Part shown: piece by piece, positions 19,514-58,341 of the stretch
Numbering within the stretch: position 1 is the stretch's first letter
Layout of the letters: every line of letters starts with the position of its first letter
Source of the DNA: a virus
Virus record (IMG/VR): IMGVR_UViG_3300005805_000056
Coordinates: 1 to 64,000 of that record
Reading direction: 5' to 3' (one strand)
DNA length: 64,000 bases
Program-made: the position numbers and the translations under genes
Notes under the pieces: generated by a model
What the model was told of the DNA's origin: nothing
Database searches by the model: none
What the model saw: only the letters and a program-made list of their open reading frames with translations

Positions 19514-19898
19514 TGTTACACGATCATTGAGTCCAGCAGTAATTGAGAGGTCCATTCTCAATTATTTGCGAAGACAGAGAGACTGGACCGGTTATCACCA
19601 GATGATCTATCGGGTCTCTAAGGAGTTAAGACCATTCACTTACAAGGTGGATGGCACAAAACTTGCTGTCTTTAGATGTTGTGCCGACTTGCTTAAAAGC
19701 CACATTATCTTTAGAAGAAAAGCCAGAATAGGAGCTAGAAGCTGTTGTCGTAAGACTGATATTAAGCTGCCGGACCAAGTTAGACTCAACGCTCTTTACT
19801 TGCCGAGTTCTAGTCAGCATGAAAGAGTCTTTGAAGTTTTCCAATCCCCGGTGGCTCGTAATGACAATGGCCAAGCCCGTCTTGTGGCCACGATGTGA
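19506..19898 (+). CDS. Basic hypothetical protein
   Basis: ~130-aa R/K-rich ORF coupled to upstream gene; overlaps downstream GT9 start. Confidence 0.45.
   Translation: MPDVTRSLSPAVIERSILNYLRRQRDWTGYHQMIYRVSKELRPFTYKVDGTKLAVFRCCADLLKSHIIFRRKARIGARSCCRKTDIKLPDQVRLNALYLPSSSQHERVFEVFQSPVARNDNGQARLVATM
19807..19811 (+). promoter_or_regulatory. Putative middle promoter GTTCT
   Basis: 12 nt upstream of ATG 19819. Confidence 0.55.
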
Positions 19899-21036
19899 TC
19901 AAGAGACGTGGTCTCTTACCCCTCCAAACAGATATGTAGTAAACGCTGAGTACTCCAGCCGTTTCTCTGAAGATCAGGTAGAGGAAGTTTCTGATCTCAA
20001 AGGCAGTGCATACCACAAGCCTTTTGTTGGACTGATCAACCTTAATAACTCTAAGATACTGGTTGAAAGACACCGCAGCCGTGGCATCGGTGATCTTCTT
20101 TTTCTGTCTGGTCCACTATCTTACCTCCATCACATGTCTGGTGGCACGGTAAAATTCTTTCTTAAAAGCTTGGTTGATAGAGGTTCCGTGCTGTACAACC
20201 ATCCAGCCTTGCATCTTAAGACTCCGCTCTATGGACCAACAGTCTATGACACCCTTCCTCTGTATGACTACCACTGGTTTATTGAGTCAGTGACTGAATT
20301 TAACGAGGACCGAGAACAGCCTAACGTCTACGATGTGCTCTACAGACAGATTGGCTTTGATCCAAAAACAATCGATCCAGTCTACAAGAGACCGTCTGTG
20401 GGTTTTGATGAGTCAGACACTCGTGGCTTACACGCTTTCTATCACGCCATCTGGTCTGAGAAGCAAATAGACCTTAGGTCTGAGCCATATTATGTTGTAG
20501 CTCCGTTCTCTCATGGAGTCGTAAGATCAGCTCCTTATGGTTTGTGGTTGAACCTAATCCACGAACTTTCCCAGAATCATCCCGTGCTCATCATTGGTTC
20601 ATTGCGCCATGAGTTGCCAGACATGGACATGCCTGCTGGTGAATTTGTTCAACGGCTAAGAATGATGAGTCAACAGCAGGCTAAGATCATCAACCTCATA
20701 AGTGATCTTCCCTTGCGTTCTGTTCTCACCATAATTTCAAAGTCCAAGTGTGTCTTCTGCCTGGACTCAGCACCACTTTACATGGCACAAGCCTGTAGAG
20801 TTCCAGCTATTTCTGTGTGGGGACCTCATTCACCTCGTGTCCGTATAGGCTATGACAAGGCCTACATGGACTTGGCTATCCATGCAAAGGAGGCCTGTCC
20901 AAACAGTCCATGTTTTGCATATTCAGGATTTCCTGAGAGAAAGTGTCCCGAGCAGGAAGCCCAGAAATTTTGTGCAGTTCTCGCTAATGTTGGTGTCAAC
21001 GACATCATGGAAAAACTAAGTCTGTTAGAGCAATGA
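19819..21036 (+). CDS. Glycosyltransferase family 9 (heptosyltransferase-like, GT-B)
   Basis: RGIGDLLF, CLDSAPLYMAQACRVPAISVWGP, C-terminal CPNSPC...C. Confidence 0.88.
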   Translation: MKESLKFSNPRWLVMTMAKPVLWPRCDQETWSLTPPNRYVVNAEYSSRFSEDQVEEVSDLKGSAYHKPFVGLINLNNSKILVERHRSRGIGDLLFLSGPLSYLHHMSGGTVKFFLKSLVDRGSVLYNHPALHLKTPLYGPTVYDTLPLYDYHWFIESVTEFNEDREQPNVYDVLYRQIGFDPKTIDPVYKRPSVGFDESDTRGLHAFYHAIWSEKQIDLRSEPYYVVAPFSHGVVRSAPYGLWLNLIHELSQNHPVLIIGSLRHELPDMDMPAGEFVQRLRMMSQQQAKIINLISDLPLRSVLTIISKSKCVFCLDSAPLYMAQACRVPAISVWGPHSPRVRIGYDKAYMDLAIHAKEACPNSPCFAYSGFPERKCPEQEAQKFCAVLANVGVNDIMEKLSLLEQ

Positions 21037-27834: not shown

Positions 27835-28151
27835 AAACTAATCTTGACTTGCCTCGTGAGCCAGAGAATCAATTTGACTTCTTGGTTATGCTGGGCTTTT
27901 TGCGGTGGTTTGATGCACCATTCATACTTGGAATCATCACTTCGCCTATAGCCATCTTTGTGATCTACAAAGTGTGGCCAGAATCACTCACAAATGCACT
28001 TTTGGGAGGCATTCTTTTCTACTTGATGTGGATGTGTATCCTAATCTTTAGGTGCATGCACTTTGTCATTAAGAGCATTGGAGAAACCAAGAACGTTGGT
28101 TTTGAAGCAGCCAGAATGGCTGCTACCTACCTGTCTGGTGGTAAACCATGA
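27831..28151 (+). CDS. Two-TM membrane protein (holin candidate)
   Basis: Two hydrophobic segments; directly upstream of a peptidoglycan-binding-domain gene. Confidence 0.5.
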   Translation: MKTNLDLPREPENQFDFLVMLGFLRWFDAPFILGIITSPIAIFVIYKVWPESLTNALLGGILFYLMWMCILIFRCMHFVIKSIGETKNVGFEAARMAATYLSGGKP

Positions 28152-29788
28152 AGCTCGACGTCAAAACGGCCCAGGAGTATTTGATTATTCTTGGATACAA
28201 AGTATCCAAGTCTAACAAATTTGAAACGTGTTTAAGGTCGTTTCAAATAGACAATGGCATCAATGTCACTGGACTGTTAGACGCTTCAACTTGTCAGCGG
28301 CTATACTCAAAAGCTGTTGGAAAAGTCAAGAAAGAACCTGAAACGATGACCCATAACGGTATGGTCGTTATTCCTTATTCTGTTGACGCATTCAAAGTAT
28401 CAACAGTGTTTCATGCTGTTGTAATAATAACAGACGAAAACAACGACCAAGTGAATCAATGCATAGCCAAACTTGATTCACTTTTGAAAGGCAAAAGTTG
28501 GTTTCTTACCATTACACATCCTGGACGTGCGCCAATGTTGAATGCCACGTCGGCCAAGGAGACAAATGTTATAGACTATGGCCAACACTGGTGGTCAGTT
28601 GGTGCGAATGAAGCCTTTAGACAGGCGAGGATTAAAAATATCCCAACTACTATGTATCCCATCATGGCTAGAGACATGGTGTGTGATGACTTAGTGAATC
28701 GTATTTGGCCATTGATGGAGACCAACAACTACCTCTTCGTGGTTGCTGATTGGTACTGCAATGTCTCTAAGTCTGTCTGTGTCGCTAGAAAGGACAGTGT
28801 TCTGTGGGAACAATCACCTATTGGCAGTGTCCTTTTTAACGTGAGTCTTGTTCCTGTTGTGGTGATGAATACCATGCCAGTACTTCAGCACAACGCTGAT
28901 CACGCAACATGGATGCATTGGACCATGTCAGGAATCAAGGTCAATCCAATAAATTGGACAGCCTGTAATATCACAAGGCCAAGAGTGGAGGAGACTGAGT
29001 GGACTCTATTTAGGGCCCAACTTTTCTCTGGGTGGAAAAAGCCCAAAGTATCAGCGCTGATGATCACTGGCAAGAATGCTGAGCGTTACCCACTTGCCAG
29101 AGTTTCTCTTGGTTGCTTCTTGGACCAAACGTGGTCCAATAAGGAACTTGTCATCATAAACCATGGCAACGAAAAAGTGTGCAAAACCCCTGATGCTAGA
29201 ATCAAGGAGGTGTTTGTTACTAAGGGCCAAGGAGTAACACTTGGTGATCTAAGAAACTGGTCGATAGAGAATGCCACAGGCGACTGGTGTATGACGTGGG
29301 ACGACGATGACTGGCACCACCCCACTCGTATCGAGAATCAGATGGCCAACACACGCGAGAAGCACATATCAACTTTCATCTGGCAAATACGGTGTTCGTT
29401 GACTAACAACTGTGCTTTCTATGACAAGATGCCCACAGGCCAACAGATGTCAGTTATCTACGAAAGATCCACACCAGCCCGTTATCTTTCTCTTGAAGTA
29501 AGAGAGGACACAAAATTTCTGGAGTGGTTTTCAGACAGAGTTATTTGTGTTGATAACCATGTGGGTAACTGGAATTGTGACCCAGCACAATACGTTCGTT
29601 TCTATCATGGTCGAAACATCTGGGACTTTGGCCACATGATGAATGGTTCAGACGGTCTGTATGTGCCTGAGCAAAATAAGATCGATCTGACTCCGTATCA
29701 CAAAAATCTTCTAAACCAGATTGTCTCAAAATTCAAAGCTGAAGATGGCTTCAGTGTCTCACACACTCACCCAGGTGCTCCTGTTTAA
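28148..29788 (+). CDS. Peptidoglycan-binding domain / GT2 glycosyltransferase fusion
   Basis: N-term AQEYLIILGY...LRSFQIDNGINVTGLLDAST (PG_binding_1); C-term VSALMIT, QTWSNKELVII, LGDLRN, TWDDDDWHHPTRI, EDT. Confidence 0.8.
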   Translation: MKLDVKTAQEYLIILGYKVSKSNKFETCLRSFQIDNGINVTGLLDASTCQRLYSKAVGKVKKEPETMTHNGMVVIPYSVDAFKVSTVFHAVVIITDENNDQVNQCIAKLDSLLKGKSWFLTITHPGRAPMLNATSAKETNVIDYGQHWWSVGANEAFRQARIKNIPTTMYPIMARDMVCDDLVNRIWPLMETNNYLFVVADWYCNVSKSVCVARKDSVLWEQSPIGSVLFNVSLVPVVVMNTMPVLQHNADHATWMHWTMSGIKVNPINWTACNITRPRVEETEWTLFRAQLFSGWKKPKVSALMITGKNAERYPLARVSLGCFLDQTWSNKELVIINHGNEKVCKTPDARIKEVFVTKGQGVTLGDLRNWSIENATGDWCMTWDDDDWHHPTRIENQMANTREKHISTFIWQIRCSLTNNCAFYDKMPTGQQMSVIYERSTPARYLSLEVREDTKFLEWFSDRVICVDNHVGNWNCDPAQYVRFYHGRNIWDFGHMMNGSDGLYVPEQNKIDLTPYHKNLLNQIVSKFKAEDGFSVSHTHPGAPV

Positions 29789-52802: not shown

Positions 52803-52838
52803 AAAATGGCCCAGAGATCCTCTCTCTGGGCCATTTTT
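52803..52838. terminator. Bidirectional rho-independent terminator
   Basis: AAAATGGCCCAGAGA-TCCTC-TCTCTGGGCCATTTTT between convergent genes. Confidence 0.9.
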
Positions 52839-52841
52839 ATT

Positions 52842-53285
52842 TTAGTGGATGTTCAGCAACTTGAACATCTCAGTGACTTGTTGAACAGTGGCTGGATGGC
52901 TCAACTTGTGTTCGATCGGCTGATCAACACCAAAGATTCCAACGGTCAACTTGTCTCCACTCGCCGTCAGTGTAGACAATGCATTCGGCCAGATAAATGT
53001 CTTCTGGCTTGAAGACTCAATACATAGAATGGCTGTGTATGCGTCCTTAGTCGTCTCCAGGGCGATTTGTTCACCAACCCTTACGATGTTATAGCGGCTG
53101 CGAATTGACTTCTCAAACTTAGACTGCTCTTCAGCAGTAATGTCTTCGAGTTCAAGGTCATGTTGAGATGAGAAGACCTCCATGCAGTTAGGACTCGTGA
53201 CGACCCTCTTAAGGTCAGATGAGTTAACTGCCACAGTGTATTCTGACTGGGCACTCTCTAAGATAATGAAAGCTGGCTTCTTCAT
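52842..53285 (-). CDS. Hypothetical protein
   Basis: 147-aa ORF; start uncertain. Confidence 0.55.
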   Translation of the reverse strand: MKKPAFIILESAQSEYTVAVNSSDLKRVVTSPNCMEVFSSQHDLELEDITAEEQSKFEKSIRSRYNIVRVGEQIALETTKDAYTAILCIESSSQKTFIWPNALSTLTASGDKLTVGIFGVDQPIEHKLSHPATVQQVTEMFKLLNIH

Positions 53286-53607
53286 AGTAGTTGTGGATGA
53301 CTGTTAGTTTGTTGTGATGACCAACATCAATAGGTCTAGCAGCGCAGTAGTCTTTGAACTTCTGGTGCAGGTAGTCTTTGGCAGTGTCATTCTTGGGCAA
53401 TTTCTTCTTATATCGACTGATGTACTCAAGAATTACACAGCGTCCATAGACAATTTGGCTTGAGACAATTCCAACAAACCAGATGGCTGGCAGTACTGAG
53501 ACAAACCAGACACCTTTGATAAGAAGGAATGCACTTACAAATGACAGTGGACCATAGACTACTTGGCCAATTTTGTTGATCAGCCTGAGTACTGAGATTA
53601 CTTTCCT
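53224..53607 (-). CDS. Start-less membrane-protein reading frame (possible -1 frameshift extension of 53598..54101)
   Basis: Open frame RKVISVLRLINKIGQVVYGPLSFVSAFLLIKGVWFVSVLPAIWFVGIVSSQIVYGRC...IHCGS*; no ATG/GTG/TTG upstream of the hydrophobic segments. Confidence 0.5.
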   Translation of the reverse strand, partial: RKVISVLRLINKIGQVVYGPLSFVSAFLLIKGVWFVSVLPAIWFVGIVSSQIVYGRCVILEYISRYKKKLPKNDTAKDYLHQKFKDYCAARPIDVGHHNKLTVIHNYYEEASFHYLRECPVRIHCGS

Positions 53608-54101
53608 AGTTCGATGACCGTACAGTTTTTCTTCAAGGTTTCGACGGAGAGAGGTGAGTTGTCGATGGTCGAGCCGTCTTTCAGGTGCAACGTCACTGTC
53701 TTCCCGTTGAACTCGGCAATCGAGATCGCACGCAGGTTCACTCCGCTCAACGTGAATGCTGGGGTGACCAGACGTCGCTCCACCTTTTGGGTTGGACCAG
53801 CCTTGCTCGTCTGGGTCTGAGGGACCGGTGGTAGACCCTCGCTCTTATCAATCCAAGAGTGGGCCTTCTCAGTCACAATTGGCTTTTCACCCATCAGCTT
53901 GGCAAAAAGCGGAGGGAGGTAACCGTGGTTCTTGGCCACCTTAAGCAAGGTGGCCTCAATGCCACTGGAATTGGGTGAACAGAGCTTCTGAGAAGCAAGT
54001 TCAGCCACGACAGCCGACTTAGTCAGCTTGACACTCAAAGCTTTTTCCACCTTGTTAAGGGTAGAAACTGCTTGGTCTTTGTTTAGATCACTTAGTTTCA
54101 T
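53598..54101 (-). CDS. Basic hypothetical protein
   Basis: 167 aa; GGA + ATG start; TTTACA element ~35 nt upstream. Confidence 0.65.
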   Translation of the reverse strand: MKLSDLNKDQAVSTLNKVEKALSVKLTKSAVVAELASQKLCSPNSSGIEATLLKVAKNHGYLPPLFAKLMGEKPIVTEKAHSWIDKSEGLPPVPQTQTSKAGPTQKVERRLVTPAFTLSGVNLRAISIAEFNGKTVTLHLKDGSTIDNSPLSVETLKKNCTVIELGK

Positions 54102-54333
54102 TGGTTCCTTTTATTACACCTGTGCTATCCTGTAAACAAGTTTTTCTCCCCATGGTGACGTTTGACGTCGCCTTTACATCTTTATTTGTGAACTCCCAGA
54201 TCTCTCCTGAGCTGTCCAGGATCACTGTGAAGAGCTTCTCAATCTCACTGCCGTAGTCTGTCACAAGCCAGACTCGGCCACGACCTTTCGGTGTTTCAAC
54301 TTGAAGTGATTGTTGTACCTCTAGTATTGTCAT
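54088..54333 (-). CDS. Small hypothetical protein
   Basis: 81 aa, TPKGRG...DYG...GEIW; coupled to the carbamoyltransferase stop. Confidence 0.6.
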   Translation of the reverse strand: MTILEVQQSLQVETPKGRGRVWLVTDYGSEIEKLFTVILDSSGEIWEFTNKDVKATSNVTMGRKTCLQDSTGVIKGTNETK

Positions 54334-56066
54334 TGAAAGTTTCCAATGACAAGAATAGGAGCGGTCATTTGGCCATTTGAAGCCTCAACCTCTTTCAGGT
54401 TAAAGGCCATATCCTCAATGGCATCTTTAGCTGAGTAAACGATAGGAACACCATGAACATTCAGAGATGTATTGATCAACGCTGGATGTTCCGGATAGAG
54501 ACTTCTGAGGATATTCGAGATAGGCTGAATGTTGTTTGACTCAATCAGCTGAGGTCTCCCTGAGTATCCATACTTGTTGCTGAACTTTGGATAGGGGTGC
54601 ATCACACCCCTGAATCGCTCAACGTCCACAGTGGGGTGGTAGTCCAGCGTAAGGATCATGTAGTCTAGAGATCCAGCTACTCGACTGATGTCGCTGTGGT
54701 TGAAGAAAGCATGGGCATGTTGCTTCAACATCACTGGAGCCATGGGCATAACGGTGTCACGGCCATTCAGTGAATTGATAGTCGCCACATTGTCATTAAA
54801 TGGCAATGAAAGAGTTGTCGTATTGCACAAGGCTCTTGGTCCAAATTCCATCGAACCTGTGACTGTATTGACAATCTTATTTTGCTTCAGCTGAGATACA
54901 ACGAAATCAATATAGCTCTGCTTGTTGTTGAAGTAGAAGTGTCCAGGCCTGAACTCAGTTCCATTAGCACAGATAATGCCAGGAACACGAAGATCTCTGT
55001 GGCCCCACAGGAGGCTGTCCAGACCCATCACAGATCCCTCATTGTATCTCATCAAGCCAATGGCTGCACCTTGATCACCAGCAAGTGGCGTGGCACAGAA
55101 CTCACCAGGAATCTTAGATAGAATGTGGTTGTTCAGCTTGACATTGTAGTGAAGTCCTCCAGTGACAATGATGTTGTCAATTGAGAAGTCGTCGATGATG
55201 TTCGTATAGTAGTTTTCGATGATGCACTGAACGAAGTGGCCAATGATCTTACGTAGATCAGTCTTGCCAAATGCTTCCTTATTCTTGCCAGTGATCTTCT
55301 CAATCACTTCATCAAATCTAGCCCACAGCTTATTCTTTACGCTGATCAAGCGTTCTACACTGATATAGCTTGAGTTGGAGCTTGGATCAGAAGTACGTTT
55401 TTGGAATTCATCAGCCCATTTGTGGGCCTCTGTCTGAAGATTCTTGATCTCTGAGTTGGTCAGCACTTCATCAACCCAGGTCTCATATCCTAAGAATTTA
55501 TACTCATCCTGGTTTTCTTTCATGCCACAATATGAGGTGGCATACTGGTAAAGCAAGCCTAGAGAGTTTTCATAGCCATACACGCGATGGATCAGAGACA
55601 TTGTGTCTGCTGCTGCATTCCACTTGTAGATGGAGAAGACTTCTTCTTTGTTTCCAAAGCCATCAGCAACACAGATATGAATGGGGTCTAGTGCTGTGGA
55701 GTGAGCCTCATAGAAAGCTCTAGCAGCCCAAGCATGAGCATCGTGATGCGTAAACTGTGGGTTAAGAGTAACGAGTTTTAGCTTGTGAGTGCTGCAAAGT
55801 TCCTCCACAAAATGTGGGTTCCAGTGCTTGTCATTGAACCCATTCTTGTGGAAATCAAAGTCATCAAACCAGTGTGATACATAGAGATACTGGGAACCCA
55901 GGACGTTGTTCTGGTGATTCTTAAGACACTCCTCGATTGAGAGCTGAGGAAACTGAGATGAGCTCTTGATTCGATTAAGACGTTCCTCTTCATATCCAGC
56001 CACAATACGAAATTCATCCGTAGTGATAGCTGACGAGTTGTGTCCAAGCGTAAGTAGTAAGTTCAT
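54330..56066 (-). CDS. Carbamoyltransferase, NodU/CmcH family (candidate 5hmC carbamoyltransferase)
   Basis: GHNSSA, EEERLNRIK, HHDAHA, DGFG, SLGLLY, EYKFLG, GGLHYNVKLN, GDQGAAIG, EFGPRAL, NTSLNVHGVPIV. Confidence 0.93.
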   Translation of the reverse strand: MNLLLTLGHNSSAITTDEFRIVAGYEEERLNRIKSSSQFPQLSIEECLKNHQNNVLGSQYLYVSHWFDDFDFHKNGFNDKHWNPHFVEELCSTHKLKLVTLNPQFTHHDAHAWAARAFYEAHSTALDPIHICVADGFGNKEEVFSIYKWNAAADTMSLIHRVYGYENSLGLLYQYATSYCGMKENQDEYKFLGYETWVDEVLTNSEIKNLQTEAHKWADEFQKRTSDPSSNSSYISVERLISVKNKLWARFDEVIEKITGKNKEAFGKTDLRKIIGHFVQCIIENYYTNIIDDFSIDNIIVTGGLHYNVKLNNHILSKIPGEFCATPLAGDQGAAIGLMRYNEGSVMGLDSLLWGHRDLRVPGIICANGTEFRPGHFYFNNKQSYIDFVVSQLKQNKIVNTVTGSMEFGPRALCNTTTLSLPFNDNVATINSLNGRDTVMPMAPVMLKQHAHAFFNHSDISRVAGSLDYMILTLDYHPTVDVERFRGVMHPYPKFSNKYGYSGRPQLIESNNIQPISNILRSLYPEHPALINTSLNVHGVPIVYSAKDAIEDMAFNLKEVEASNGQMTAPILVIGNFQ

Positions 56067-56887
56067 GACTTAAAGAATTTCAAATCGTGGTACAGGTGGG
56101 TGCTTAGTGCAAAGGGACTTTCAAATGTGAATTCATCGTCAAAGAAGTGTCTTAGTTGTAGCATGTCGCCTAACTCATTTGGGTGGAATGTGGGCCACTC
56201 AATGAGCGTGGCATGCTCATAGGTAAGATTCTTGTATTCAATGTGGAGTGAACCCACATTGTGGAAATAAGTACCCACATCCAATCCTAAAAATGTGGCC
56301 ATCATCTCCTGCAGCATTGTGAAAAATACCACATCTGTTCTAAACCCAAAATGAAGTTCATTTGACCTCATTGTAGTGATTAGATTCAATCGGTTATTAC
56401 GAATCAGAAACTGCAATGAGGTTGTACAGATGTGGTCACTTGTTCCAGACATGGCAACCTCACGTCTGTTGAACATGATGATGGCTCTTCGTGAGCTTGG
56501 GTCTTTTCTAAGAAGATTCAGACAGTGTTGAAACTGTCTCTCCACCCAAACGTATTGACCATAGTTTGAGTTGACATCACCCTCCTGTGCTCTCTCCCAC
56601 ATCTGTGGGAAATACTGCTTCAACTCAGTGTTTTGCTTGCCCCAAGCGTACCACGCCCATTGAAGGGCCATATATGGCACAAAAGTAATTGGATCACTTC
56701 TAAGGGCTACAACCCTCTCTAGAGGATTATCGATCTCAATGCAGACATTGATGAACTCATGCCAATCTCCACTAATGGCATGGTGGGATGGGTTATAGTT
56801 GTCGCTTATTGGAGATACGTTGGCCTGATCAATCTTCCTGACTAATGTTGAGTAGGCTTCAGGTACATTCGTGGCGTGGATAATCAT
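56063..56887 (-). CDS. Thymidylate synthase-fold dCMP hydroxymethylase-like enzyme (T4 gp42-like, divergent)
   Basis: NSNYG, SRRAII, DHICTTSLQFLIR, MRSNE, FGFRTD (Asp = cytosine specificity position), NVGSLH. Confidence 0.85.
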   Translation of the reverse strand: MIIHATNVPEAYSTLVRKIDQANVSPISDNYNPSHHAISGDWHEFINVCIEIDNPLERVVALRSDPITFVPYMALQWAWYAWGKQNTELKQYFPQMWERAQEGDVNSNYGQYVWVERQFQHCLNLLRKDPSSRRAIIMFNRREVAMSGTSDHICTTSLQFLIRNNRLNLITTMRSNELHFGFRTDVVFFTMLQEMMATFLGLDVGTYFHNVGSLHIEYKNLTYEHATLIEWPTFHPNELGDMLQLRHFFDDEFTFESPFALSTHLYHDLKFFKS

Positions 56888-57480
56888 GCGATTTCTGACA
56901 GTGCTTCTTCACAGGCACTGAGTATCTGGTCTTCTTCCTTGCGCACGTCTACCTTAGTCAACTTGGACAAACCTGTAAACAACCCAATGTTCAAAGTTTC
57001 AATGAGCTGGTGCTCAATGGTCTGGGTCACCATCAAGTCGTTGGGTCTCATTGGGTCTTTGACTGTGATGGGCAAAGGCTGCATCATGAAGACAATGTCA
57101 TAACGCTTCTTTGCTTTGGCCGTCTCTGTAATGGTCTTGACAAAGTTGACGTAGTCAATCTTCTGGGCATCTGTTAGAGCCTTGATGTCAATGTAGAACG
57201 TCGTGTAAAACAAAGAGTCTGCCAGACTTCTGTCTACAAGGATCAGCTTGCCACTACCAGAGTTTGCTTCATCCTCCATCTTGATCTTCTCCATGACCAC
57301 CTTCTGCTGAAGCTTAAAGTAGTTCTGGGCTGAGTTTCTAACAACGTCAATGGAGGTGATCTTGTCTCTGATGCACTCACCCACGATGTGGACCTTTGAG
57401 CCAAAGCGGTCCTTGATCTTGTGCATGAGTGTTGTCTTTCCAGCATTACAAGGACCTGAAAAGGCGAAAGTGACGTTCAT
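56884..57480 (-). CDS. P-loop nucleotide kinase (NadR/AAA_28-like; candidate modified-dCMP kinase)
   Basis: SGPCNAGKTTL, ILVDRSLAD, YDIVF, DPMR. Confidence 0.75.
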   Translation of the reverse strand: MNVTFAFSGPCNAGKTTLMHKIKDRFGSKVHIVGECIRDKITSIDVVRNSAQNYFKLQQKVVMEKIKMEDEANSGSGKLILVDRSLADSLFYTTFYIDIKALTDAQKIDYVNFVKTITETAKAKKRYDIVFMMQPLPITVKDPMRPNDLMVTQTIEHQLIETLNIGLFTGLSKLTKVDVRKEEDQILSACEEALSEIA

Positions 57481-57488
57481 ACTTCTCA

Positions 57489-57512
57489 AGAACATGAACC
57501 GATGCGTGTTCT
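57489..57512. promoter_or_regulatory. Divergent pair of GTTCT motifs
   Basis: AGAAC 57489-57493 is 13 nt from ATG 57480 (-); GTTCT 57508-57512 is 12 nt from ATG 57520 (+). Confidence 0.6.
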
Positions 57513-57519
57513 TAGTGTC

Positions 57520-58341
57520 ATGGCAATTAAGAGTAACATCCAGGATTTCAGACCAACACGGGAAAAGTTCTCAAAGAAAATCAGACTTCTCTCTGGTGGG
57601 TTCACCACCTTGGACTACTTTCCCAAGGGAGAAATAACCATCTACCCATGGGACTCCAAGATGGACGATTGGGTTGTAAAGAACCAGGGTCTGGCACCCA
57701 ATGATTTCTTGGTTCAGGCTGTCCAACGCATCGTTCCTCTTGGTCAGTGCCCTGTTCAAAAGCTGGTGTTCAGTGATGTTCAGACCATCTTGTTGGTTTC
57801 TCGTGCCATGAGAAACAACTCAGTCTATGCTCACCAGGCCAAGTGCACAGCTTGTGGTTTCCTCCATCCAGAGGACCATATCCGTATCCCTGATGACATG
57901 GAGATGGTGGGTGTTAAGAACGATGGCTACATTGGCCATGATACTTTTACACTTCCTGATTGTAAGGACGAGGTTTCAATCCGCCCACTAACTGTGGGTG
58001 ACATTCAACGTTTGGACCAACGTACTGAGATTGAAAACTCAACAGTAAGACGAGAGTCAGCCGAACTACTCTGGGGCATTGTTGCCGTGGGTGGTGGCAA
58101 GCCTGATTCATTGGAGGAAGTTGATCGTTGGTACGGTGCTTTGTCACCGGCTGATCAGCTCTATTTTAATCTCATGCGTCGTGAGTTGGACCCTCACCTC
58201 AGCCCTGAGATCAAATACTCATGCAATAAGTGTAAGGCGGAGTTCAGCGTGCCGGTCCAGCTGGACTCCGAGTTTTTTCGTCAGAGAGTCCGAAAGGGCC
58301 CTATACGACAGGTGGCACAGAGTGTGGATGGTAGCGACTAA
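57520..58341 (+). CDS. Baseplate hub/tail assembly chaperone (T4 gp26-like)
   Basis: LLSGG, DVQTILLVSR, CTAC, LPDCKDEVSIRPLTVGD, CNKC...QLDSEFFR. Confidence 0.75.
   Translation: MAIKSNIQDFRPTREKFSKKIRLLSGGFTTLDYFPKGEITIYPWDSKMDDWVVKNQGLAPNDFLVQAVQRIVPLGQCPVQKLVFSDVQTILLVSRAMRNNSVYAHQAKCTACGFLHPEDHIRIPDDMEMVGVKNDGYIGHDTFTLPDCKDEVSIRPLTVGDIQRLDQRTEIENSTVRRESAELLWGIVAVGGGKPDSLEEVDRWYGALSPADQLYFNLMRRELDPHLSPEIKYSCNKCKAEFSVPVQLDSEFFRQRVRKGPIRQVAQSVDGSD

Follow-up and report, generated by a model that had tools for sequence, protein, structure and literature searches.

A kinase, thymidylate synthase-like and carbamoyltransferase gene triad as a probable cytosine modification operon in a phage genome fragment

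As the first 64 kb of the 93.6-kb virus record IMGVR_UViG_3300005805_000056 of IMG/VR, whose completeness is estimated at about 41% by CheckV, the stretch of 64,000 nucleotides (nt) analysed here (hereafter the window) carries on its minus strand an operon centred on three genes, namely those of a P-loop kinase, of a protein with the fold of thymidylate synthase (TS), designated P0002, and of a carbamoyltransferase, designated P0003. The operon very probably decorates cytosines of the phage DNA. The features of the locus are the following, with the length of each open reading frame (ORF) in amino acids (aa):

56884-57480, minus strand: P-loop nucleoside/nucleotide kinase of the AAA_28/NadR-RNK/dNK/TMPK superfamily, 198 aa, likely true start at 57480
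56063-56887, minus strand: P0002, predicted cytosine-specific TS-fold enzyme of the "Q-type" clade, 274 aa (Pfam, alignments, tree)
54330-56066, minus strand: P0003, NodU/TobZ-family O-carbamoyltransferase, candidate 5-hydroxymethylcytosine carbamoyltransferase, 578 aa (Pfam, PHROG)
54088-54333, minus strand: 81-aa ORF, coupled to the carbamoyltransferase gene by an ATGA overlap, no family
53598-54101, minus strand: coupled ORF, 167 aa, start overlapping the 81-aa ORF, no family
57481-57519, no strand: short divergent intergenic region with the inverted pair AGAAC...GTTCT (sequence reading)
52803-52837, no strand: bidirectional terminator-like hairpin, strong, with a 15-bp stem

Three successive ATGA overlaps, read off the sequence, join the genes of the kinase, P0002, P0003 and the 81-aa ORF, and both the ORF calls and the overlaps on the minus strand agree with an earlier note on this DNA, which had described three coupled genes with a small ORF. 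At a fourth junction, the 81-aa and 167-aa ORFs overlap by 14 nt; the coupled unit therefore reaches beyond 54088, where the note had set its boundary, and comprises five translationally coupled ORFs, the hairpin probably marking its distal end. The ORF call for the kinase extends over 56884-57495 (minus strand), with an alternative upstream ATG at 57495, and several of its homologues begin at a Met matching 57480. The three families named in the earlier note are likewise borne out by Pfam, i.e., AAA_28, Thymidylat_synt and Carbam_trans_N/C, and by PHROG 1601.

P0002 matches the Pfam family Thymidylat_synt (PF00303) with E 1.3e-15 and finds its best solved relatives in MilA (E 1.5e-21) and T4 gp42 (E 1.2e-20), TS following only at E 7e-11. 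Its Cys154 aligns with C148 of T4 gp42 (C146 in Escherichia coli TS) and, as recognised in the earlier note, the Asp of its GFRTD motif (Asp185) aligns with Asp179 of T4 gp42 (FRND motif), at the position held by Asn in dUMP-specific enzymes; this is a general trait, the key Cys and Asp being carried by 77/77 TS-like genes adjoining carbamoyltransferase homologues. An Asp at N177 and an acidic residue at L143 are the criteria for dCMP hydroxymethylases (PMC13326640), and the second of these residues is D151 in P0002. The phosphate-binding residues R174, S175, R132 and R133 (R166, S167, R126' and R127') are kept, together with Y109 and H215 (Y94 and H207). As far as its residues tell, P0002 is a cytosine-specific enzyme in which those of covalent catalysis are kept.

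Other positions depart from this pattern. At E58/L143/C146/H147/Q165/D169/N177 of E. coli TS, the signature of P0002 reads Q D C T M E D. As such, (i) the Glu activating methylene-tetrahydrofolate (mTHF; E. coli E58, T4 E60, MilA E68) is Gln76 in P0002, in both the HMMER alignment to MilA and the MAFFT alignments, (ii) D169 (T4 D171) is Glu177, and (iii) the equivalent of T4 Y218 is lost, being E, K or another residue across the Q-type clade. The Glu in question protonates mTHF through a water molecule and thereby starts the reaction (PMC6400193). By these three changes, P0002 differs from all characterised folate-dependent members compared, namely T4 gp42, MilA and canonical ThyA. Moreover, D169N is the signature of flavin/O2-dependent 5-hydroxy-dCMP synthases (PMC13326640), and the Glu of P0002 at that position does not correspond to it. 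The label "dCMP hydroxymethylase-like" given in the earlier note hence holds for the Asp, the Cys and the proximity to MilA and gp42, but not for Q76, E177 and the lost Y218, nor for the separate clade to which the protein belongs.

In a library-wide HMMER alignment, Gln takes the place of Glu in 27 of 157 aligned rows; of these, about 24 represent database clusters and belong to the 150 best. The nine rows closest to P0002 all read QDCTED. Gln76 is invariant in 22 Q-type sequences sharing 30-50% identity, and a quick maximum-likelihood tree (IQ-TREE) places the Q-type in one clade (98% SH-aLRT), apart from the T4 gp42 group. By these sequence comparisons, the Q-type is a conserved, uncharacterised clade. 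The nearest cultured homologues of P0002, from Enterococcus phage VPE25 and Lactobacillus phage ATCCB, were considered as a guide to the Gln-type and discarded, being Glu-type and located beside beta-glucosyltransferase genes. A supposed loss of the same Glu in RB69 gp48 was also withdrawn as shared evidence, as other alignments place a Glu there.

The genomic context of the Q-type is equally constant. In IMG/VR, the kinase lies immediately upstream and the carbamoyltransferase immediately downstream in 6/6 Q-type loci; with the same query, Glu-type loci show the kinase in 0/74 and a carbamoyltransferase-like match in 4/74. Among 12 metagenome Q-type loci, 11 have the partner or partners for which their flanks leave room, and the twelfth, spanning only 1.2 kb, is too short; the single metagenome Glu-type locus has neither kinase nor carbamoyltransferase. 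Of 76 Glu-type hits, 75 lie near neither of the two genes. Wherever the flanks permit the test, the Q-type thus occurs only inside the kinase/carbamoyltransferase triad. The only complete relative, a 230-kb metagenome genome with terminal repeats (G001), is syntenic with the record from the sheath to the baseplate hub, at 33-49% amino acid identity. It encodes three proteins of the TS family, namely (i) a canonical ThyA, (ii) a Glu-type, Asp-specific dCMP hydroxymethylase beside ribonucleotide reductase, and (iii) a Q-type protein in the triad. In the 93.6 kb of the record, the TS family is represented by a canonical ThyA and by P0002, the latter being the sole Asp-type member. This ThyA gene lies outside the window, at 83619-84608 of the record (minus strand; L071:4620-5609), and its product has the signature E L C H Q D N and a typical C-terminus.

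A comparable arrangement was observed in loci of Bacteroides-phage type (about 50 kb), where a TS paralogue directly follows the kinase and carbamoyltransferase genes, e.g., L002:9456-10262 (BF503P2) and 19 similar cases. In this kinase-adjacent paralogue, the Glu is absent in 20/20 (Met, Leu or Ile) and D169N is found in 16/20; a canonical Glu-type hydroxymethylase paralogue is encoded 1-3 kb away.

P0003 comprises both domains of the NodU/TobZ type, i.e., Carbam_trans_N (Kae1-like; E 1e-17) and Carbam_trans_C (YrdC-like; E 1.2e-24), and matches PHROG 1601, "Nol-like carbamoyltransferase," with E 2.3e-63. Among solved structures, it is related to O-carbamoyltransferases that act in antibiotic pathways, including the novobiocin enzyme, GdmN and TobZ. 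Homologues sharing 36-38% identity are present in cultured phages of Bacteroides, Acinetobacter and Xanthomonas (Xp15), and relatives are encoded at 65 IMG/VR loci. Across 63 phage homologues, 92 positions are at least 95% conserved, all of them kept in P0003 by construction of the list, and in P0003 numbering these include the His/Asp metal-site motifs as well as the GPRAL and NTS-N motifs. The precedent on which the earlier note drew, a phage carbamoyltransferase forming 5-carbamoyloxymethylcytosine, is indeed published (Yang et al., 2021, eLife, PMC8670742): one metagenomic phage enzyme, requiring carbamoyl phosphate and ATP, produces the 5-carbamoyloxymethyl form from 5-hydroxymethyldeoxycytidine (5hmdC) in single-stranded DNA, from 5hmdCTP and from RNA and is inactive on 5mdCTP and 5hmdUTP. 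A literature search returned no later paper on 5-carbamoyloxymethylcytosine. P0003 can accordingly be regarded as a candidate 5-hydroxymethylcytosine (5hmC) O-carbamoyltransferase; its assignment and that of the kinase are ordinary ones, drawn from homology and conserved linkage.

The kinase matches Pfam AAA_28 at E 2.9e-14 (54 bits for a cut-off of 27), with dNK as a weak match. Its AF2 structural model has a pLDDT of 92, and the fold most similar to it is that of the ribosylnicotinamide kinase domain in NadR (Z 17.1), ahead of deoxynucleoside kinases (14-15, with dGK at 15.1) and TMPK (about 14). The residues invariant in the family are those of the P-loop, E40, R43, R53, Y59, D88-R89, D93-S94 and Y97, which we take to resemble the motifs of dNK as well as those of TMPK. 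A kinase homologue directly adjoins the carbamoyltransferase gene in 38/68 loci, and among cultured phages homologues occur in only six Bacteroides phages, all of which also have the carbamoyltransferase.

Three candidate identities of the kinase were rejected. As a 5-hydroxymethyldeoxyuridine (5-hmdU) DNA kinase, it aligned by hhalign over 21 P-loop columns only with M6 gp54 and not at all with SP10 gp186. As a relative of T4 gp1, it obtained an hhalign probability of 3% and no phmmer match to the solved gp1, the P-loop being the only common element, as it also is with RB69 gp45. A homologue of T4 gp1 itself was found neither in the record nor in G001.

In at least four loci (L010:8140-9414, L013:7532-8866, L016:7736-9025 and L065:4480-5934), the kinase carries a C-terminal fusion to a domain of the uracil-DNA glycosylase (UDG) superfamily (PF03167). 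We know of no description of such an AAA_28 kinase–UDG-superfamily fusion, which hints at a DNA-level or base-flipping activity in some variants; in the record, a search for the UDG family found none. In the version of the module carried by Xp15 and Acinetobacter phages, a PRA-PH/MazG-like pyrophosphohydrolase gene follows that of the carbamoyltransferase in place of the kinase (L004:8634-9053, i.e., Xp15 gp38, and L003:8646-9320), and the module therefore has at least two architectures.

Considering homology, the carbamoyltransferase would draw on carbamoyl phosphate and ATP to O-carbamoylate a hydroxyl borne by the C5 substituent of cytosine; most likely, it would convert 5hmC, either within DNA or as the nucleotide, to 5-carbamoyloxymethylcytosine. 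The kinase would phosphorylate the modified deoxycytidine nucleotide towards the triphosphate pool, which is the job of gp1 in T4. An ordinary dCMP hydroxymethylase would be encoded by genome sequence missing from the record, by analogy with G001, and P0002 would be a neofunctionalised second TS-like enzyme. Understood in this manner, the triad would be a variant of the phage system that adds a carbamate to a C5-substituted cytosine, an account to which we grant an even chance. In favour of a new role for P0002, as a second enzyme, are the invariance of the Glu-to-Gln change, the occurrence in the triad only and the separate canonical hydroxymethylase of G001. It is also conceivable, albeit with clearly lesser confidence, that together with the kinase and the carbamoyltransferase the Q-type catalyses a C5-cytosine reaction other than folate-dependent hydroxymethylation and leads to a cytosine derivative not yet described, such as a carbamate on 5-hydroxycytosine or the product of a carbamate or phosphate displacement.

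Several points weigh against the favoured account. The extra canonical hydroxymethylase is shown by one complete genome only, that of a distant relative; the folds closest to the kinase do not discriminate between a nucleoside, a nucleotide and a base hydroxyl as acceptor; and the likeness of P0003 to the characterised carbamoyltransferase is set by family and not by direct sequence comparison. P0002 is also much closer overall to T4 gp42, with which it shares 34% identity (E 4e-27), the RB69 hydroxylase reaching 22% (E 7e-10), and it retains several folate-contacting residues (equivalents of Y56, W82 and F174); it therefore could simply be an unusual hydroxymethylase. In that case, an atypical but functional dCMP hydroxymethylase would supply the kinase, which would form 5hmdCDP, and the carbamoyltransferase would turn 5hmC into 5-carbamoyloxymethylcytosine. 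Such a pathway is sustained by MilA and T4 gp42 as the best solved relatives, by the hydroxymethylase-like Asp at both N177 and L143 (PMC13326640), by the tight translational coupling of the three genes and by P0002 being the only Asp-type TS homologue in 93.6 kb. It is nonetheless rather doubtful, given the clade-invariant replacement of the mTHF-activating Glu by Gln, the D169E change, the missing Y218 equivalent and the canonical hydroxymethylase that G001 retains besides. These same changes, the separate clade and the hydroxymethylase of G001 mean that P0002 may not be a hydroxymethylase and that the product may not be 5-carbamoyloxymethylcytosine. We favour a second enzyme with a new role, at a confidence that is evenly balanced, and rank the direct hydroxymethylase pathway next.

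Further alternatives concern the chemistry at C5 or the purpose of the module. Since TS homologues can be O2/flavin hydroxylases (PMC13326640), P0002, lacking the folate-activating Glu, might install another C5 hydroxyl, e.g., as 5-hydroxy-dCMP in the manner of the flavin-dependent homologues of RB69 and DLP3, from which the carbamoyltransferase would make 5-carbamoyloxycytosine, an undescribed base. Although the paralogue of Bacteroides-phage type, without Glu and mostly with D169N, lends itself to this idea, we hold it improbable: P0002 has D169E instead of the diagnostic D169N and stands far nearer T4 gp42 than RB69 gp48, whose own Glu loss depends on the alignment, and the characterised carbamoyltransferase was assayed on 5-hydroxymethyl substrates only (PMC8670742). 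Least credible are two others, each most unlikely in our estimation. The kinase could place a phosphate on the hydroxymethyl group, and either this phosphate or the carbamate would activate 5hmC as a leaving group, whereupon the Glu-less P0002, then in no need of folate activation, would re-form the exocyclic methylene and add another nucleophile, yielding a further derivative. Thymidine hypermodification, in which a 5-hmdU DNA kinase acts ahead of a group transfer (PMC8989533), offers a precedent in principle, and the Glu-less TS-like enzyme is linked only to the kinase and the carbamoyltransferase, but the proposal is wholly speculative, the kinase has nothing except the P-loop in common with 5-hmdU DNA kinases and the operon has no candidate enzyme to supply the nucleophile. 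Alternatively, the target of the module might not be phage DNA, its enzymes acting instead in nucleotide salvage, in the modification of RNA or in making small molecules, as CMP hydroxymethylases of the MilA type work in antibiotic synthesis and the characterised carbamoyltransferase acts on RNA too (PMC8670742); the retention of the module in many unrelated phage contigs amid replication genes and its published association with modified-DNA contigs (PMC8670742) speak against it.

Respective to known systems, the closest is that of Yang et al. (2021; PMC8670742), where a two-domain NodU/TobZ-type carbamoyltransferase is likewise found beside an Asp-type TS homologue of phage origin. The published co-occurring domains are TS, PRA-PH and deaminases, with no kinase mentioned, whereas the present operon has an AAA_28 kinase as partner and a Gln-type instead of a Glu-type TS homologue, and no PRA-PH, MazG or deaminase was found. 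The hydroxymethylcytosine pathway of T4 (gp42, the deoxynucleoside monophosphate (dNMP) kinase gp1 and glucosyltransferases) follows the same logic, in that a TS-fold enzyme works alongside a kinase and a transferase that adds a group to the hydroxyl, and the two phages also have in common a Gp23 capsid, a UvsX-like recombinase, gp46/47-like nucleases, sheath, baseplate and a canonical ThyA. By contrast, apart from the P-loop the present kinase has no relation to gp1, a carbamoyltransferase serves as the transferase, and in P0002 E60 is replaced by Q and D171 by E, with Y218 missing. RB69 gp48 and DLP3 gp80, the flavin-dependent 5-hydroxy-dCMP synthases (Lee et al., 2026, PMC13326640), are similarly TS-fold, cytosine-specific and departed from folate chemistry, and each has as partners a dNMP kinase and a transferase that targets the hydroxyl; they differ by D169N, which is Glu in P0002, and the identity is 22%. 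Regarding thymidine hypermodification by the 5-hmdU DNA kinase and aGPT-Pplase (PMC5889632, PMC8989533), a P-loop kinase gene beside a pyrimidine hydroxymethylase homologue is the common trait, but the kinase family is another, the base is here cytosine and not uracil, and there is no transferase of glycosylase fold.

As for the extent of the modification, the earlier note had proposed that a carbamoylated derivative replaces cytosine throughout the genome. This is not supported, no dCTPase-like or deaminase gene being detected in the record or in G001: searches for MazG, PRA-PH, dUTPase-type dCTPase and dCMP deaminase in the incomplete record and in G001 found none, by family models that may miss divergent enzymes such as T4 gp56-type dCTPases.

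By hypermodifying their DNA, phages defeat restriction and CRISPR, and such modifications are a source of enzymes for epigenetic sequencing; an anti-restriction or anti-CRISPR role of the present modification, as put forward in the earlier note, can only be inferred. While the evidence for carbamoylated cytosine has so far consisted of the in vitro activity of one metagenomic enzyme, the locus represents a recurrent three-gene form of the carbamoylation system, i.e., a variant of a known one, in which a TS-fold member gave up its folate-activating residue yet is strongly conserved and seen only with the kinase and the carbamoyltransferase. Work of 2026 reported that TS homologues of other phages switched to flavin chemistry (PMC13326640), which makes the Q-type clade a concrete candidate, open to testing, for a further shift of chemistry within the TS superfamily, and one that may point to a new DNA base. 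The final base made by the operon could be new, since its middle enzyme lacks a catalytic residue kept in all characterised relatives compared.

With regard to the other coupled ORFs, the 81-aa ORF has zero matches in Pfam or PHROG, its homologues being confined to the close relatives L005-L009. The 167-aa ORF likewise has zero family matches in Pfam and PHROG, and an Atlas search gave no usable match; it is kept in L005-L009 and, at 30%, in L026, and is not present in G001. Overlapping its 3' end in a different frame, a stop-to-stop frame at 53224-53844 (minus strand) encodes a hydrophobic, membrane-like protein that is kept in relatives (55% in L006-L009, 42-44% in L026 and G001). This frame contains no ATG, GTG or TTG before 53400, for which an unusual start codon, reinitiation or a frameshift is a possible explanation.

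From its gene content, the phage is a T4-like myovirus. T4-like genes include those for (i) a Gp23-type capsid protein, a prohead protease and a tail sheath, (ii) a RecA/UvsX-like recombinase, helicases, an NAD-dependent ligase and a gp46-like nuclease, and (iii) glycosyltransferases. Genes for the baseplate hub, the tube and a flap exonuclease surround the operon, and a primase, a gp47-like nuclease and a portal are encoded elsewhere in the record. At the nucleotide level, a search of the phage collection gave zero matches. The glycosyltransferase-like genes of the window lie at 19819-21036 and 28148-29788 (both plus strand), one of GT9 family and one of GT2 with a peptidoglycan-binding domain.

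Finally, the GTTCT motif under which the earlier note had grouped the operon is in part confirmed: it is found 12-13 nt before gene starts, including that of the kinase, but as a 5-mer it is under-represented overall (99 copies in the record for 162 +/- 13 expected). GTTCT precedes an ORF-opening ATG by exactly 12 nt at seven sites of the record, compared with 0-2 at neighbouring offsets; as this spacing recurs, GTTCT is a genuine start-proximal signal. In the divergent intergenic region, one copy precedes the kinase ATG at 57480 by 13 nt, and its mirrored counterpart precedes the ATG of the divergent gene at 57520 by 12 nt. The starts so preceded are 13764, 18012, 19819, 25299, 31533 (minus strand), 57520 and 57480 (minus strand) and, in record coordinates, 68453 (minus strand) and 75654, and the start-proximal sites share an extended GTTCTTAGT..CATG-like context.

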